NCBI GenBank assembly: GCA_005222975.1
Contig: NJBI01000014.1
Span: 1-60,636 of the forward strand
Reading direction: 5' to 3'
DNA: 60,636 bases
DNA from: Promethearchaeota archaeon Loki_b31
GTDB lineage: Archaea; Asgardarchaeota; Lokiarchaeia; Sigyniarchaeales; SOKP01
Positions 5,851 through 39,540 of the stretch are shown here, piece after piece. A program made the translations under genes and the position numbers. The notes beneath the pieces are model-generated. The model made no database searches. It saw only the letters and a program-made list of their open reading frames with translations, and was not told where the DNA came from. How positions within the stretch are numbered: position 1 is the stretch's first letter; each line of letters starts with the position of its first letter.

Positions 5851-6034
5851 TTTTTAAAACCCTTTTACTTTATTTTAAGTATAATTACGGATGTGGACGT
5901 TATGAATGAAAAATCTAAATTTTTAGTTTTAACATCAATTTTCATAGAGATCATATCCGATATTATTATTAGATAAAATTCTTTTCTTTATGAAACGAAT
6001 TTCGAAAGAAACTATTCACATCCTGTTTCATAAA
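5851..6034 (+). promoter_or_regulatory. Putative ileS promoter and structured attenuator-like leader
   Basis: TATA-like TTTTTAAA at 5851. 10-bp stem 5987-5996/6025-6034 with an inner GAAA-loop hairpin. Alternative pairing 5889-5897/6015-6023. Confidence 0.5.
5902..5976 (+). CDS. Putative Ile-rich leader peptide (uORF) of ileS: MNEKSKFLVLTSIFIEIISDIIIR
   Basis: ATG 5902 to TAA 5976, with 7 Ile codons in the last 12 sense codons. SD-like GGATGTGGA at 5889-5897; lies directly upstream of ileS. Confidence 0.6.
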   Translation: MNEKSKFLVLTSIFIEIISDIIIR

Positions 6035-6095
6035 TTAAAAACAGAACTTTAACATATTTATAAAATAATATTTCAAAAAAGTACAATAACAAAAT

Positions 6096-8963
6096 GTGGT
6101 AGGTTATATGTTATATATTGAAAAGGAAGAAGAAATAATCCAGTTTTGGAAAGAAAATAAGATATTCGAAAAGAGTGTCGAGTCTAGATCAAAAAAAAAA
6201 CCTTATGTATTTTATGATGGTCCTCCATTTGCCACAGGTTTACCCCATTACGGACATATATTAAGTTTTGTAACAAAAGACGTATTTCCAAGGTATTGGA
6301 CGATGAAAAATCATCGCTGCGAAAGAAAATGGGGGTGGGATTGTCATGGGCTTCCTATAGAAAGCATTTGCGAACGAGCATTAAATTTAAAGCAGAAGAA
6401 CGAAATATACGAGATGGGCTTAAGTGAGTTTAACGAATTCTGTAGATCAAAAGTTCTTTGGTACACTAATGAATGGAAAAACACTGTTGAACGGATGGGC
6501 AAATGGATTGAATTTGATAACGCTTATAAGACAATGGATAACTCGTATATGGAAACAATTTGGTTTATATTTAAGAAAATATACGATGAAGGATATGTGT
6601 ACAAAGGTAAAAAAGTTCTTCTTTATTGTCCAAGATGCGAAACACCTCTCTCAAATTTTGAAATATCCATGGATAACAGTTATAAGGATGTTACCGAAAA
6701 ATCTCTTATAGCGAAATTCAAATTAAAGGATAATTCGGATACTTATTTGCTTGCTTGGAGTACAACGCCATGGACATTAATTGGAAATGTAGCTTTAGCA
6801 GTAAATAGTAAACTTAATTATGTTAAAATCAGGGTTGAAGATGAATTTTTAATTTTGATCAAATCCAGATTAGATATAATAAACGAGAATTACGAGATAG
6901 TTGATGAATTTAAAGGAGAAGATTTAATAAATAAACCATATGAACCTTTATATCAAGTTTCTGTCAAGACTGACAAAGTAGGCCATTTTATCATTGATGG
7001 AGGTGAAGATGTCTTGTCAGATGAAGGTACGGGAATAGTACATATGGCTATTTATGGAGAATTTGATTACGAGATGATTAATAAATACGATATGCCGATA
7101 ATCCAACACATTGATGAACAAGGTAAATTGGCTGAAGGTCCAGAAGATTGGAAGGGTTTGTGGTTCAAAGATGTTGATAAAGAAGTCTTAGATGACTTGA
7201 ATAGTCGAAATCTTTTATATAATACAGAAGACTACAAACACTCGTATCCTTTTTGTTATAGGTGCGATACTCCTCTAATGTATAACGCCCTTGATGCCTG
7301 GTTCATAAACATTCAGAGAATAAAACCTACGCTTCTAAAAACAAATGAACGAATCAATTGGTATCCTAAAGAAATTTCTAAAAGTTATCAAAACATTATA
7401 AAAAGCGCTCCTGATTGGTGTATTTCGAGAAATCGATTTTGGGCTACTACTATGCCAATATGGGTATGCGTGAAGTGTAATACAATTAAAGTGATAGGTT
7501 CTGTGAAAGAACTACAAGACCATGCTAACGAAACGGTTCCTGATAATTTAGATCTACATAGGCACATCGTAGATGATATACATTTGAAATGCTCTGAATG
7601 TGGAAATATAATGAATCGCATACCTGAAGTGTTTGATTGTTGGCTCGAATCGGGTTCAATGCCATATGCTGCAAAACATTATCCTTTTGAGAATGTAGAC
7701 TGGTTCAAGCACAATTTCCCTAGCGATTTTGTGTCTGAATACATTGGACAGGTAAGGGCTTGGTTCTACTACATGCATGTAATCTCAATTCTGTTGTTTG
7801 ATGACATTCCGTTTAAAAATGTCGTCGTAAACGGTAATATACTTGCTGAAGATGGCACCAAAATGTCAAAATCAAAAAAAAATTACGTTGATCCGTCCCT
7901 TATAATAAGATCATACGGAGCTGACGCGTTAAGGATTTACCTATTAGCATCTCAGCTAATGCGAGCAAAAGATTTAAACTTTAAAGAAGAAATTGTTAAA
8001 CAAGTCTATCGAAGATTTAATTTGTTATTATTCAATGTTCTAAATTTCTATTCTTTATTTGAAATCAACAATTTATCTGTAGATAACTCCAATTCAGAAA
8101 ATATTTTAGATAGGTGGATTATAGACTTAGTGAATAATCTTACACGGGATGTGACTCAGCGATTAGATGATTACGATACGGGAGAAGCAAGCAAATTAAT
8201 TATCAATTTTGTTGAAGATTTGTCAACCTGGTACATCAAAAATAGTAGAAATAGGTTTAAAAGCGAAGTAATAAAAGAAAAGCTAGCAGCTATGAATACT
8301 TTGACATATGTACTTCACAATTTATCGAAAATCTTAGCTCCATTAACGCCCTTCATTTCTGAAATGATATATCAGAAATTGAGAGAAAAAAACCTCGTAA
8401 AATACGAATCCGTACATTTAGACTTATGGCCAGATTATGATCAAAGTTTATCCTTTCCCAATCTAAGTGCTAAAATGAATTTAACTAAGGAAATAGTTCA
8501 AAAATCTTTGGAATTAAGAGAAAAGATTAAGATACCTTTACGACAAGTATTAAAAAAGATAACACTAAAAGGAGTAAGTTTAGAAGATGAATTTTTAGAA
8601 TTAGTTAAAAAAGTATTAAATGTGAAAGAAGTCGTTATTAAAAATGAAGATATGTCTGAATTAACTGTAGAATTGGATACAGAAATCACGAGAGAACTGA
8701 AACTAGAAGGAATAGCTAGAAACTTAATAAGAAATATTAATAATTATAGGAAGAAAATGAAGCTATCTCCGAATAACAGAATAAAATTATATTTAAATAC
8801 TGAAGACAATGAAATTTTAGAATCAATATCTAAATACCAAAACTATATCAAAAAAATGGTACAAGCAGACGCGATTTTTAATAAGATAGATAATAACAGA
8901 GATATTAGGACATTTAAAGTAAACCAAAGCGAAGTTTCAACTTATCTCGAGGTAATAACTTAA
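6096..8963 (+). CDS. ileS: Isoleucyl-tRNA synthetase (IleRS2/eukaryote-like type; likely start ATG 6108)
   Basis: DGPPFATGLPHYGH, GWDCHGLP, WSTTPWTL, DWCISRNRFW and KMSKS motifs. Confidence 0.96.
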   Translation: MVGYMLYIEKEEEIIQFWKENKIFEKSVESRSKKKPYVFYDGPPFATGLPHYGHILSFVTKDVFPRYWTMKNHRCERKWGWDCHGLPIESICERALNLKQKNEIYEMGLSEFNEFCRSKVLWYTNEWKNTVERMGKWIEFDNAYKTMDNSYMETIWFIFKKIYDEGYVYKGKKVLLYCPRCETPLSNFEISMDNSYKDVTEKSLIAKFKLKDNSDTYLLAWSTTPWTLIGNVALAVNSKLNYVKIRVEDEFLILIKSRLDIINENYEIVDEFKGEDLINKPYEPLYQVSVKTDKVGHFIIDGGEDVLSDEGTGIVHMAIYGEFDYEMINKYDMPIIQHIDEQGKLAEGPEDWKGLWFKDVDKEVLDDLNSRNLLYNTEDYKHSYPFCYRCDTPLMYNALDAWFINIQRIKPTLLKTNERINWYPKEISKSYQNIIKSAPDWCISRNRFWATTMPIWVCVKCNTIKVIGSVKELQDHANETVPDNLDLHRHIVDDIHLKCSECGNIMNRIPEVFDCWLESGSMPYAAKHYPFENVDWFKHNFPSDFVSEYIGQVRAWFYYMHVISILLFDDIPFKNVVVNGNILAEDGTKMSKSKKNYVDPSLIIRSYGADALRIYLLASQLMRAKDLNFKEEIVKQVYRRFNLLLFNVLNFYSLFEINNLSVDNSNSENILDRWIIDLVNNLTRDVTQRLDDYDTGEASKLIINFVEDLSTWYIKNSRNRFKSEVIKEKLAAMNTLTYVLHNLSKILAPLTPFISEMIYQKLREKNLVKYESVHLDLWPDYDQSLSFPNLSAKMNLTKEIVQKSLELREKIKIPLRQVLKKITLKGVSLEDEFLELVKKVLNVKEVVIKNEDMSELTVELDTEITRELKLEGIARNLIRNINNYRKKMKLSPNNRIKLYLNTEDNEILESISKYQNYIKKMVQADAIFNKIDNNRDIRTFKVNQSEVSTYLEVIT

Positions 8964-9640: not shown

Positions 9641-12595
9641 TTGTTATCCGATAAAGAGAAGAAACAGCTCAAAAGTGCTCGTAATGATAAAGAACTAAAG
9701 AAGATATTTAAAACGATCGCTTCTAAGAAACCCGATGAATTTTTTCCAACCCAAGAGCTTAGGAACTTAGGTTACATTAGAAAACATTGTGAATGTTGTA
9801 GGGCTTATTTCTGGACAACCATTAAGGACCGAAAGGTATGCGGCGATCCTGCTTGTTCTGGCGGGTTTCAAGTTGCTGGAAAGCCACTAACGCATAAATT
9901 ATCCTATATTGGTGTATGGAATAAAATTGTAGAAATTTTAGAACCAAGAGGATATAAACCAATTAAGCGATACCCTTGCGTTGCGAGATGGAACCCTACT
10001 TCAGAATTTACAATAGCATCAATCTCAGCGTTTCAACCTTATGTAATCTCAGGTGAAGTTGAGCCACCAGCGAAAAAACTAATTATACCTCAATTTTGCT
10101 TACGGTTTAACGATATTGAGAATGTAGGAATCACTGGTTCGCACAACACGGGATTCGTGATGATAGGGCAGCATTTTTTCGGCACACCTCAAGAATGGAA
10201 TCAAGGACAGCTTTTTATGGATATACACGACTTTATTACCATAGGTGTGGGACTCTCAAAAGAAGAAATAACGATTCACGAAGATTCTTGGGCTGGTGGA
10301 GGTTCTTTTGGTTGTAGCCTTGAGTTTTTTAGTAGAGGTGTAGAATTATTCAATCAAGTCTATACGATGTTCGAACAGACCCCAAATGGACCACGGGAAC
10401 TGAGTCTTAAAGTTTTGGATATGGGGCTTGGTCAAGAACGCGTGGCGTGGTTTTCACAAGGTACTCCAAACATCTATGAAGCTATATTTCCATATGTTTT
10501 ATTAAAATTAAGGGAAATAACTAAAATAAATTTGGATTTTGATTTATACGATAAATTTTCAAAATATTCCGCATACTTAAATATCGACGAAGTAGACGAT
10601 ATGGATGCGGCATGGGAGAGTGTAGCCAAGGATTTAGAAATCTCAGTAAAAAAATTGAGAGAGAAGATCATGCCCATGACTGCAATCTATTCGATTGCCG
10701 ATCACGCGAGAAGTTTATTATTTGCTATAAACGATGGAAAACTCCCTTCTAACGTAGGAGGGGGGTATAATCTTAGAGTAATTTTTAGACGGGCTATAAG
10801 TTTTATCGATAAATTTAATTGGGATATAAATATCGCTGATGTTTGCAAATGGCACGCGGAAGAATTAAAAGAATTGTTTCCGGAAGTATCTGAGCATTTG
10901 GATAAAATTAGAGAAATTTTAAACGTAGAAAAAGACAAGTATTATAAAACAAAAAGAAAAGCCAGCAAAATTTTAGAAAAATTACTTTCTGAAGGAGATA
11001 TCTCAACCGCGACTTTAATTGAAATATACGATTCCAGAGGCATTAACCCTGAAATGGTTAAAGAAACCGCGGAAAAGTTCGGTAGAACCATAAAAATCCC
11101 AGATAATTTTTATAGTTTAGTAGTAGAAAGGCACGAAAAAATAGAGCAAATTCACGCAACAGAAAAACAAATTGAGTTAGATCTAAACGGTGTTCCAGAA
11201 ACCGAGTCTCTTTACTATTACGATTATACTAATACTTCAAACAACGCAAAAGTCCTAAAAATTATTGATAACATGGTAATTCTTGATCGATCTGTTGCTT
11301 ATCCTACTTCAGGAGGCCAATTACATGATGTTGGAACTATTAACGGTCAAAAATTTGATAAAGTGTTTAAGCAAAATAGCTATATCGTTCATATTTTATC
11401 TGAAAAACCTAGTTTTAAAGAAGGAGATACCGTTAAGATCGAAGTAGATAAAGAATGGAGGACTCAACTCTCGCAACACCATACGGCTACTCATATCGTT
11501 AATGCTGCGGCCCGTTATATATTAGGAGACCATATTAATCAAGCAGGGGCGAAAAAAACGCTTAAAAGATCTCATTTAGATATAACTCACTTTGCTAAAG
11601 TTCCCTATGACAAGTTAAAGGAAATAGAAAAAGAAGCAAATGAAATAGTAAACCAAGCAATCGATCTTAAGCTTTCTTTTATGCCTCGCTCAGATGCGGA
11701 ACAAAAATATGGAATGACGATCTACCAAGGGGGAGCAGTACCTGGTAAAAATATAAGGCTCGTAGAGGTTCCAGGAGTAGATGTGGAAGCTTGTGGTGGA
11801 ACGCATTTAAATAATACATCAGAAACTGGAAGAATTAAAATAACTAAATCCCAAAAGATTCAAGATGGCATAGTGAGATTGACCTTTACAGCAGGAAATG
11901 CGACAAAAGAACTTGAGCAAGAAGAGACTCTAATTTTAAACCAATTAGAATCGCTATTTAAAATTTCACGGGCTAAAATCGTTGGGAGAGTAGCTGAATT
12001 ATTAAACAAATGGAAAAACATAAATAAAGCCTTACAAACAGGAAAGGTTAAAAAAATTGATATGTCTTTAGATTCAAACAACACCTTTCAAGGAGATATC
12101 TTGACGGAATTATCTCAAATCCTTAACACAAAAAAAGAGGATATTCCGCTAAAAGTAAATAAGTTATTTAACGAATGGAAAGAAGCTAAAACCAAATTGC
12201 AGGATGTAGAAAACTTATTAAAAGAAAGTTACGTGGAAGAACTTATAAATTCAGCGTTCTCATTTGAAAATTCTAAAATGATTCTTAGATCCTTTGAAAA
12301 TCTTTCCCAAACCGATCTTAAAAATTTAAGCGTGAAAATTTTACAGAAATCCGAGAAATTAATTACACTTTTCATCAATAAGACCGAAAAAGGAATTACT
12401 CTAATGGGAATGATAGGGAAAAATCTTTTAGAAGAGATGGATTTCGAGATGGGAAAAGTAGTTCAGGAAATCGTTTCTAATTACGGTGGTAAGGGTGGTG
12501 GCAAGAAGGATTATGGTCAAGGATTTATCGATAATAAAGATTTAAGCGTCGAAGATCTGATTAAACGCATAAAAGAGAAATTAGATATAAAATAA
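9641..12595 (+). CDS. alaS: Alanyl-tRNA synthetase, archaeal type
   Basis: N-terminal CxxC...CGDPAC zinc motif, YPCVARW, QFCLRFNDI, editing HHTATH and EACGGTH, C-Ala GGKGGG. Confidence 0.96.
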   Translation: MLSDKEKKQLKSARNDKELKKIFKTIASKKPDEFFPTQELRNLGYIRKHCECCRAYFWTTIKDRKVCGDPACSGGFQVAGKPLTHKLSYIGVWNKIVEILEPRGYKPIKRYPCVARWNPTSEFTIASISAFQPYVISGEVEPPAKKLIIPQFCLRFNDIENVGITGSHNTGFVMIGQHFFGTPQEWNQGQLFMDIHDFITIGVGLSKEEITIHEDSWAGGGSFGCSLEFFSRGVELFNQVYTMFEQTPNGPRELSLKVLDMGLGQERVAWFSQGTPNIYEAIFPYVLLKLREITKINLDFDLYDKFSKYSAYLNIDEVDDMDAAWESVAKDLEISVKKLREKIMPMTAIYSIADHARSLLFAINDGKLPSNVGGGYNLRVIFRRAISFIDKFNWDINIADVCKWHAEELKELFPEVSEHLDKIREILNVEKDKYYKTKRKASKILEKLLSEGDISTATLIEIYDSRGINPEMVKETAEKFGRTIKIPDNFYSLVVERHEKIEQIHATEKQIELDLNGVPETESLYYYDYTNTSNNAKVLKIIDNMVILDRSVAYPTSGGQLHDVGTINGQKFDKVFKQNSYIVHILSEKPSFKEGDTVKIEVDKEWRTQLSQHHTATHIVNAAARYILGDHINQAGAKKTLKRSHLDITHFAKVPYDKLKEIEKEANEIVNQAIDLKLSFMPRSDAEQKYGMTIYQGGAVPGKNIRLVEVPGVDVEACGGTHLNNTSETGRIKITKSQKIQDGIVRLTFTAGNATKELEQEETLILNQLESLFKISRAKIVGRVAELLNKWKNINKALQTGKVKKIDMSLDSNNTFQGDILTELSQILNTKKEDIPLKVNKLFNEWKEAKTKLQDVENLLKESYVEELINSAFSFENSKMILRSFENLSQTDLKNLSVKILQKSEKLITLFINKTEKGITLMGMIGKNLLEEMDFEMGKVVQEIVSNYGGKGGGKKDYGQGFIDNKDLSVEDLIKRIKEKLDIK

Positions 12596-37703: not shown

Positions 37704-39335
37704 TTGAAAAAAATGAGTTATGATATAGTTATTAAGAATGGAAGGATTATTAATGGGGCTGGTAATCCCTGGTTTTACGGAGAAATTGGGATTAAGGATG
37801 GAAAAATTGCCAGAATAAGACCAAAAATTAACGAAGACGCTAAAAAAGTAATCGACGCTAGCGGAATGATCGTCTGTCCTGGATTTATAGATATTCACTC
37901 TCATACGGATTATATCTTACCCGTTAGTAGGAGTCAAGAGTCCACTTTATGTCAAGGAGTTACTACTGCTGTTGTGGGCATGTGTGGATCTGGGATGGCT
38001 CCCATTCCAGAAGGAAAGGAAGACGAATTTAAAAGGAGGATGAATACCCTGGATCCTGTTCTTGAACAATTTGAATACCCATATCATACATTTAAAGAAT
38101 ATCTGGATTATAACGAGCGGAAAAGAAATCCCGCCAATTTAATCTTTTTTGTAGGATATGAAAACCTGCGATGGGCGGGTGGTCAAGGAGGTGAAGATCG
38201 GTCCGCTACACCTGAAGAGCTTGAAAATATGAAAGGTTATTTAAGAGAAGCAATGGAAGCGGGGGCATTCGGTATGAGTACTGGATTAATATATGCCCCT
38301 CAAATGTTTGGTACTACAATTGAAATCATCAAATTAGCTAAGGTCGTTGCTGAATATAACGGATTGTATTTTTCTCACATTCGTGGCGAAGGGGAGACTG
38401 TTATAAAAGCCGTAAAGGAAGTAATTGAGATAGTTGAGAAATCGGGTTGTGCTGGTGGCCAAATAGCACATCATAAAGTTGCTGGTGAAGAATTTTGGGG
38501 CAGGAGCAAGGATACTATTCGCCTAATTGAAGAAGCAAATGAACGAGGCCTAAGTATTACTTGCGATCAATACCCTTATAATCGTGGGATGGCTGACCTT
38601 GCAACAGCGCTCCCTCCTTGGGCACGTAAAGGAAGTAATGATGACATATTAGAACGCATAAAAGATCCTAAGATCCAAGAAAGAATCAAAAAGGATGTTG
38701 AAAAAGGCATTGAGGGATGGGAAAACTGGATCCGAGACGAAGGCATGAAAAACTTGTATATTGCAACAGTTAATTCTGATAAATGGAAAGATGTTGTCGG
38801 TAAAAATTTAACAGAAATCACTCAGATAAAAGGGAACTCTGATGATTGGGAAACATTCTTTCAATTACTAATCGATAATGCGTTAGGTGTATTGTTAACG
38901 ATTGAATGCATGGGTGAAGAAGATATTCGCAGAATTATGACTAGCCGCTATCAAATGGTAGGCACAGATGGATTTGGATTCCCCGCCTCCTTTAGTGCGG
39001 GAGCATACCACCCTCGATGCTTTGGGACATACCCCCGAGTTCTTGGTAAGTATGTGAGAGAAGAAAAAATTATGACTTTAGAACAAGCTATTCGTAAAAT
39101 GACATCCTTTCCAGCTCAACGACTCAGACTTCAAGATAGAGGCCTTGTTCTAGAAGGGAATTGGGCTGACATAGTTATCTTTAATCCCGACAAAATTATT
39201 GATAAAGGAACTTATGAGCAACCTTACCAGCTTCCTGAAGGAATCCCACATGTTATTGTCAATGGTGTGATCGTCGTCCAAAACGGAAAAAAAAATAAAA
39301 AATCACCGGGAATTGTGATACGACGTCCCACTTAA
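37704..39335 (+). CDS. N-acyl-D-amino-acid deacylase (D-aminoacylase; likely start 37713)
   Basis: PGFIDIHSH, GMCG, STGLIY, SHIRGE, HPRCFGTYPRVLG and ADIVIF. Confidence 0.92.
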   Translation: MKKMSYDIVIKNGRIINGAGNPWFYGEIGIKDGKIARIRPKINEDAKKVIDASGMIVCPGFIDIHSHTDYILPVSRSQESTLCQGVTTAVVGMCGSGMAPIPEGKEDEFKRRMNTLDPVLEQFEYPYHTFKEYLDYNERKRNPANLIFFVGYENLRWAGGQGGEDRSATPEELENMKGYLREAMEAGAFGMSTGLIYAPQMFGTTIEIIKLAKVVAEYNGLYFSHIRGEGETVIKAVKEVIEIVEKSGCAGGQIAHHKVAGEEFWGRSKDTIRLIEEANERGLSITCDQYPYNRGMADLATALPPWARKGSNDDILERIKDPKIQERIKKDVEKGIEGWENWIRDEGMKNLYIATVNSDKWKDVVGKNLTEITQIKGNSDDWETFFQLLIDNALGVLLTIECMGEEDIRRIMTSRYQMVGTDGFGFPASFSAGAYHPRCFGTYPRVLGKYVREEKIMTLEQAIRKMTSFPAQRLRLQDRGLVLEGNWADIVIFNPDKIIDKGTYEQPYQLPEGIPHVIVNGVIVVQNGKKNKKSPGIVIRRPT

Positions 39336-39540
39336 AATATATGGAAAAAAATAATTCATTAAAAATTTTTTTCTCTCTTCCATAAAAACTGTTTATATTT
39401 AATCAACATCAATCTTTATACTCAAAGGCAACGATTTAACTAGATTAATTTATAAAATATTAAATTAATATTTTTAATATATATTCAATTAACACATCCA
39501 TAGATTATTAAAAATCAAAATAAAATAATGGTTGTTTATT

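Follow-up and report, generated by a model that had tools for sequence, protein, structure and literature searches.

Can an archaeon control an aminoacyl-tRNA synthetase gene by having a ribosome read a leader peptide rich in the cognate amino acid? The question is raised by ileS, the isoleucyl-tRNA synthetase (IleRS) gene in a 60,636-nucleotide (nt) stretch of Promethearchaeota archaeon Loki_b31 (contig NJBI01000014.1), referred to here as the window. The original prediction, made from the letters of the window, described an isoleucine (Ile)-rich upstream open reading frame (uORF) and competing RNA helices before ileS, and proposed that ribosome stalling on this leader senses the charging of Ile-tRNA. 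We compared the leader with those of 35 assessable orthologous loci, which share 66-95% protein identity and belong to one IleRS clade, giving 36 leader sequences in all. Sequence comparison indicates that the leader is a real, conserved regulatory element. We assign a probability of about 0.55 to the full mechanism, in which a ribosome-read Ile attenuator would set, by termination, how many transcripts reach ileS. The TATA-like box, Shine-Dalgarno (SD)-like sequence, uORF, 10-base-pair stem, complementary segment at 6015-6023 and second TATA-like sequence near 6058 were all found where the prediction had put them. The features of the locus, numbered along the window, are the following.

5851-5859, + strand: TATA-like box TTTTTAAAA, candidate leader promoter, 35-39 nt before strand 1 in 36/36 leaders
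5887-5897, + strand: strand 1, the SD-like GGATGTGGA (5889-5897) with a 2-nt extension; pairs with strand 2 or with 4a/4b
5902-5976, + strand: leader uORF from ATG (5902) to TAA (5976), 24 codons, with seven Ile in the last 12 and all three Ile codons used
5951-5958, + strand: strand 2, TCATATCC, within the Ile cluster; partner of strand 1 when not covered by a ribosome
5962-5970, + strand: terminal control codons ATT-ATT-ATT, ATTATTATT, nucleotide-invariant in 36/36 leaders
5976-5985, + strand: strand X, U-rich, just past the stop; its partner in the alternative fold is 5993-6002
5987-5996, + strand: strand 3, 5' arm of the 10-base-pair stem (helix 3:4b)
6000-6011, + strand: inner hairpin (TTTC/GAAA), local to the window's subclade
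6015-6023, + strand: strand 4a, TTCACATCC, complement of strand 1 in the loop of 3:4b; core pairs conserved
6025-6034, + strand: strand 4b, 3' arm of the stem, with first bases that can alternatively pair with the extension of strand 1
6035-6107, + strand: AU-rich spacer with the ileS SD-like stretch at about 6095-6103; candidate termination zone
6057-6064, + strand: second TATA-like sequence TTTATAAA, in this exact form in 5/36 leaders
6108 (or GTG 6096)-8963, + strand: ileS, 951 amino acids, encoding a DPANN-related IleRS

The uORF is kept at 35/35 assessable loci of the clade. It is 20-25 codons long and starts with ATG in 35/36 leaders and with GTG in one; start, stop and frame are kept in all 36. 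Ile makes up 10% of codons in the genome, and the prediction had named the frequency of Ile codons in AT-rich DNA as a caveat. At the intergenic Ile frequency of 0.123, at least seven Ile in the last 12 codons has a binomial p of 1.9e-4 per uORF, and the window uORF is alone among the genome's 2065 intergenic uORFs in reaching this count. The genome-wide chance expectation for such uORFs is about 0.4; the telling point is the position before ileS. Individual leaders carry four to eight Ile in their last 12 codons, which sum over the 36 sequences to 238 Ile, 2 Leu and 6 Val, and the first half of the peptide and the non-Ile positions vary freely. Ile occupies codons 21-23 in 30/30 leaders of 24 codons. 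The ATT share of Ile codons genome-wide is 51%, yet the terminal run is always ATT, which would reflect either codon selection or an extra constraint on the RNA.

The conserved distance of the TATA-like box from the SD strand supports a leader promoter, whose start site would lie near 5880-5885. Strand 1 matches the ideal SD at 6/7 bases when compared with the 3' end of the genome's 16S rRNA (GGATCACCTCC), and its GATGTGG is invariant in the 36 leaders. The RNAalifold consensus fold consists of helices 1:2 and 3:4b. Helix 1:2 has 98.3% of alignment cells paired; the 3:4b stem has 96.4% paired, with 4/10 pairs changed on both sides. The strand X helix is weaker than the others (85.8% of cells paired, one pair changed on both sides). 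In L075, where strand 1 has A for G, strand 2 and strand 4a both have U for C, so that both alternative partners of strand 1 follow its change. Column 193 of the alignment, which lies in 4b, covaries with strand 3 (GC in 29 leaders, AU in 7) and also with the strand 1 extension (GC in 23, AU in 7, unpaired in 6); the latter pair is AU in the seven members of the window subclade and GC in most others. This dual covariation of one 4b base suggests that 1:4a invades the competing 3:4b stem. On these comparative grounds, we take the uORF, its cognate codon run and the three helices 1:2, 1:4a and 3:4b, conserved with compensatory changes, to be established, and the competing helices proposed from the single sequence have been upheld. 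Three lesser elements of that proposal are present in the window and are not conserved outside its subclade, namely the inner hairpin of TTTC and GAAA (in 5/36 leaders), the stem formed by ATGAAAA and TTTTCAT (in 3/36) and the second TATA-like sequence in its exact form.

The helices were then followed in a folding model in which the ribosome is a 27-nt stretch kept unpaired, pseudoknotted coexistence of 1:4a and 3:4b lying outside the model. The free window leader was predicted to fold into 1:2 (P 0.85) and 3:4b (P 0.76). With a ribosome at the stop codon P(3:4b) was 0.98, and with a ribosome stalled on the Ile codons P(1:4a) was 0.98-1.00. The modelled stall yielded 1:4a in 36/36 leaders, and 1:2 was dominant in 30/36 when transcripts were cut before 4a. 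The model thus predicts a switch between 1:2 + 3:4b and 1:4a.

We propose that transcription starts just upstream of strand 1 and that a ribosome would load on the uORF before strand 2 is made. When Ile-tRNA is plentiful, or the uORF is untranslated, strand 2 would be free to capture strand 1. Formation of 1:2 would let the 3:4b stem form and leave U-rich RNA unpaired and ribosome-free, and transcription would end in or after the leader, most likely via aCPSF1/FttA (OFF). When Ile-tRNA is scarce, the ribosome would stall in the Ile cluster and cover strand 2; strand 1 would then capture 4a and invade the 4b base, the 3:4b stem would not form, and RNA polymerase would read on into ileS (ON). 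We infer that ribosomes stall on the uORF, so that ileS expression would sense Ile-tRNA charging, that 1:4a is the ON fold and that the OFF state ends in termination. The leader is very probably a ribosome-read Ile-tRNA sensor for ileS. Given a sensor, the proposed polarity is equally probable; 1:4a was taken as the ON fold because IleRS should rise when Ile-tRNA is short. Given both, termination is the probable output.

Our best guess for this output, a step that the original prediction left unnamed, is factor-dependent termination via aCPSF1 at a U-tract. The genome encodes an orthologue of this factor, scoring above the cut-off of TIGR03675, which we take to be the aCPSF1 family. A lokiarchaeal aCPSF1 reads U4-tracts in vivo in M. 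maripaludis (PMC8716108). The stem is followed by an A-rich stretch in homologues, and 27/29 homologues with long spacers have a run of at least five U beginning 36-58 nt beyond the stem; the window's own spacer at 6035-6107 has no U4 run. In 32-35 of the 36 leaders, the 1:2 fold leaves more U unpaired between the stop codon and 4a than the stalled fold does. Free U4 tracts average 0.88 in the 1:2 fold and 0.45-0.50 in the stalled fold, and four leaders have none.

Several observations weigh against this mechanism. Most strand 1 pairs never vary, and SD function alone could fix them; the leader sequences are also related, so that the covariation counts represent few independent events. Even without a ribosome, 28/36 homologues favour 1:4a at equilibrium (median gap -5 kcal/mol). 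For most homologues the switch must therefore be kinetic, and the OFF state relies on 1:2 lasting as a folding intermediate. The window contains no hairpin-U intrinsic terminator and no U-tract after the stem. The caveat raised on this point in the original prediction stands, and the leader is not a classical intrinsic-terminator attenuator. The distal U-run is absent from the window subclade (0/7) and could elsewhere be a TATA box; such a run also occurs in 22% of control genes at a similar distance from their start. Finally, the decrease in free U comes in part from the model itself, since some of the U lies under the ribosome footprint.

Cognate uORFs also precede other amino-acid genes, in line with the attenuator logic of the prediction. 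In an unbiased scan of the genome's uORFs, the one that ranked first is rich in Leu and precedes the archaeal-type leuS; another, rich in Trp, precedes trpB2.

G000:C78, ending about 142 nt before 16962, + strand: Leu-rich uORF, with Leu at 9 of the last 12 codons (L124, L224-L252)
G000:C75, ending about 169 nt before the gene at 37972-39372, - strand: Trp-rich uORF, ending WQWPWRS, before trpB2 (L125, L207-L223, L255-L259)

All 26 assessable genomes of a genus sample that includes the source genome carry the Leu leader, and by eye its 5' end is complementary to both the codon cluster and a distal segment. No Leu-rich uORF precedes the bacterial-type leuS on C1 (L126), and no Leu leader precedes the leuS of G050 or G055. 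Trp-containing uORFs precede trpB2 at 17 loci, and uORFs with Trp near the end do so in five more distant genomes, G055 and G050 among them. In three cases, then, the amino acid enriched in the uORF matches the gene that comes after it (Ile/ileS, Leu/leuS and Trp/trpB2). In three genomes of another family, Ile-rich uORFs of unrelated sequence were further found about 290-380 nt upstream of the usual Asgard ileS (L037 in G055, L038 in G044 and L036 in G037). They follow the same pairing logic, GCGTCTG pairing with the Ile cluster or with a distal CAGACGC. The modelled switch of the G055 leader is the same as that of the window leader; the G037 and G044 leaders gave 1:4a in all modelled states. 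No Ile-rich uORF precedes the usual ileS in G050 and its genus. Inspection by eye of 15 other synthetase candidates in the genome, identified by Pfam only, with the ArgRS start uncertain and PheRS not found, revealed no cognate leader. The ArgRS domain (PF00750) occupies the 3' portion of an open frame of 1708 codons (G000:C5:8531-13657, - strand), which is either a fusion or two genes spanned by one frame. We consider it an even bet that Promethearchaeia (Lokiarchaeia) hold a family of ribosome-coupled attenuators for Ile, Leu and Trp that arose repeatedly on different genes and end transcription via aCPSF1, the homologue of eukaryotic CPSF73.

Other readings of the ileS leader accept part of this evidence. 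The same sensor and switch could act after transcription, through mRNA cleavage or stability or through ileS translation initiation by an undetected contact. Such an output would suit the window subclade, which has no terminator signature, and the anti-SD-like strand 4a, which is free in the 1:2 + 3:4b fold; archaeal RNA control also exists, with a validated natural riboswitch and synthetic ones (PMC11549558). Against the ileS start region, however, strand 4a reached a mean of only -4.4 kcal/mol (shuffles -3.5; -16.0 against strand 1). This pairing is not above shuffles and there is no covariation between the two segments, so that simple SD occlusion is disfavoured, and the unconserved spacer of 73-116 nt before ileS makes reinitiation or direct occlusion unlikely. 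We therefore regard a post-transcriptional output as unlikely. Less likely again is the opposite polarity, in which 1:4a would shut off the leader after the ribosome leaves (OFF) and 3:4b would be ON, with stalled and queued ribosomes keeping strands 1, 2 and X occupied. The E. coli trp leader is a known case of leader shut-off pairing; in most homologues 1:4a has the greater stability, in 20/36 leaders (not in the window's) it reaches over the start codon, and 3:4b is followed by no U-tract. This polarity would nevertheless leave strand 2 without a role, yet 1:2 covaries, forms first and recurs in the unrelated G055 leader. After ribosome release, moreover, 1:2 would re-form and lead to 3:4b, the same fold as in starvation.

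Alternatively, the RNA could be a binding site for IleRS or another factor and the codon run incidental, as has been proposed for the actinobacterial LEU element, whose regulation is reported to be unaffected by mutations of its Leu codons (PMC1262725). The lack of synonymous variation in ATTATTATT across the 36 sequences would fit a protein target, as would the ends of the Leu leaders, where this trinucleotide repeat recurs in a different reading frame. However, a protein-binding site does not account for the start, stop and frame being kept throughout, nor for the repeat always standing in the frame of the cognate amino acid. The Leu runs also vary synonymously (TTA, TTG, CTA), and the repeat is missing from the Trp leader. 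We consider this reading improbable, somewhat more so than reversed polarity. The uORF could, lastly, encode a small hydrophobic protein acting in trans or have arisen by chance in AT-rich DNA. Averaged over 19 residues, the hydropathy of 11/36 peptides reaches 1.6, and the abundance of Ile in the genome would favour chance. The other 25 fall under membrane-helix level, though, and Leu and Val almost never replace Ile, which a membrane peptide would tolerate, even as the non-Ile positions are free; the single match among the scanned uORFs stands before ileS. Ile retention, hydropathy and the genome-wide scan effectively rule out both the membrane peptide and AT-rich chance.

The leader peptide attenuator favoured here is tied to a particular type of ileS. 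The product of the window gene is an IleRS by TIGR00392 (819 bits, cut-off 621); labelling it a mupirocin-resistance gene was rejected, as MupA and MupB scores were far under cut-off. With the window IleRS as query, no second IleRS turned up in the 92%-complete source genome, in a search whose absence calls are not reliable, several near-complete genomes having no match to this query at all. The nearest ileS loci are in Promethearchaeota assemblies. Within the genus the window-type gene is patchy, being full-length in 7/36 other genomes. Other genomes of the genus encode an IleRS of about 1056 amino acids with about 34% identity to that of the window, G008 and G024 have both types, and no comparable Ile leader was found before the canonical ileS of about 1056 amino acids in this genus. 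In a quick maximum-likelihood tree, the leader-bearing IleRS form a single group (SH-aLRT 100) whose sister consists mostly of DPANN proteins; Patescibacteria branch outside these, and the usual Asgard IleRS stand at a great distance. Transfer of the window-type ileS, in one direction or the other, is likely.

Among 33 DPANN-type and bacterial relatives checked, an Ile-rich uORF was found in one only. Two Nanoarchaeia (L104/L261 and L260; IleRS identity 84%) have in common a uORF of 10-11 codons about 135 nt upstream of ileS, which contains five Ile, ends ATT-ATT-ATT-x-stop and is followed by what appear by eye to be two alternative helices. In these two related genomes it may be a DPANN counterpart that bears on the origin of the leader. 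In many Iainarchaeum-type relatives (L082, L086, L088, L090, L091, L100, L109, L110), a candidate tRNA gene with the anticodon TAT (Ile), judged by eye, stands directly before ileS in place of the leader. The position of the ileS ATG is ATT, ATA or TTA in many homologues (L058-L060, L063-L065, L070-L075, L093, L096 and others), most of which have an in-frame GTG three codons upstream, within an SD-like GGTG. The gene alaS lies two genes downstream of ileS, at window 9641-12595, and no Ala-rich uORF was seen before it.

We found no leader-peptide attenuator described for an archaeon in the full-text literature, a search outside which most subscription journals fall. A 2021 review of archaeal coupling has no occurrence of 'attenuat' (PMC8116511), uORFs of Haloferax and Methanosarcina have been called only possibly regulatory (PMC10117724, PMC11549558), and the coupling of ribosomes to archaeal RNA polymerase and aCPSF1 has been posed as an open question (PMC13681488). 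In bacteria, leader-peptide attenuators have been predicted before leuS and trpS of Streptomyces (PMC1262725), and His leaders precede hisS paralogues in bacilli (PMC2965389).

Like the classical bacterial attenuators (E. coli trpL, thrL, ilvL, leuL and hisL, and pheM before pheST), the Ile leader places a short uORF containing cognate codons before the gene serving that amino acid. It likewise has mutually exclusive helices, with one strand in the control codons and 1:2 + 3:4 as the default. It differs in its archaeal host and TATA promoter, in using its own SD as strand 1, in setting the control codons right against the stop and in the absence of a U-tract after the 3:4 stem. The competing helix, 1:4a, spans a long range and would enclose the stalled ribosome; a 2:3 antiterminator hairpin was not found, strand 2 pairing only with strand 1. 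The absence of both the 2:3 antiterminator and an intrinsic terminator sets the Ile leader apart from the classical class. E. coli tnaC stalls through its nascent peptide, whereas the sequence of the Ile leader peptide is not conserved beyond Ile. Both tnaC and actinobacterial cys leaders (PMC1262725), thought to act through Rho, resemble the proposed Ile leader in that the position of a ribosome on a uORF would be read without a hairpin-U terminator, probably by a termination factor; here the factor would be aCPSF1/FttA, which cleaves at U-rich RNA. The ileS T-box of Firmicutes and Actinobacteria (PMC1262725) shares with it the regulated gene and the presumed signal, uncharged tRNA-Ile, but the Ile codons here stand in an open frame with SD, start and stop, and a scan to E = 10 gave no T-box or other Rfam family in the leader, only three unrelated sub-threshold matches. 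The actinobacterial LEU element before leuA (PMC1262725) also has a uORF with a cognate run in alternative pairing, and in both elements crossing helices could form a pseudoknot. In the LEU element the partner of the codon run is the structural gene's SD, whereas the Ile run pairs with the leader's own SD, and no pairing of the leader to the ileS SD was found.

If confirmed, the ileS leader would bring a form of control familiar from bacterial textbooks into the third domain, with the helices in another order and probably another terminator, and would be a natural reporter of whether and how ribosomes couple to archaeal RNA polymerase and aCPSF1. The aCPSF1-dependent family, if it exists, would be the first leader-peptide attenuation in Archaea, with a helix order of its own. 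It would also be functional evidence that transcription and translation are coupled in relatives of the eukaryotic ancestor.

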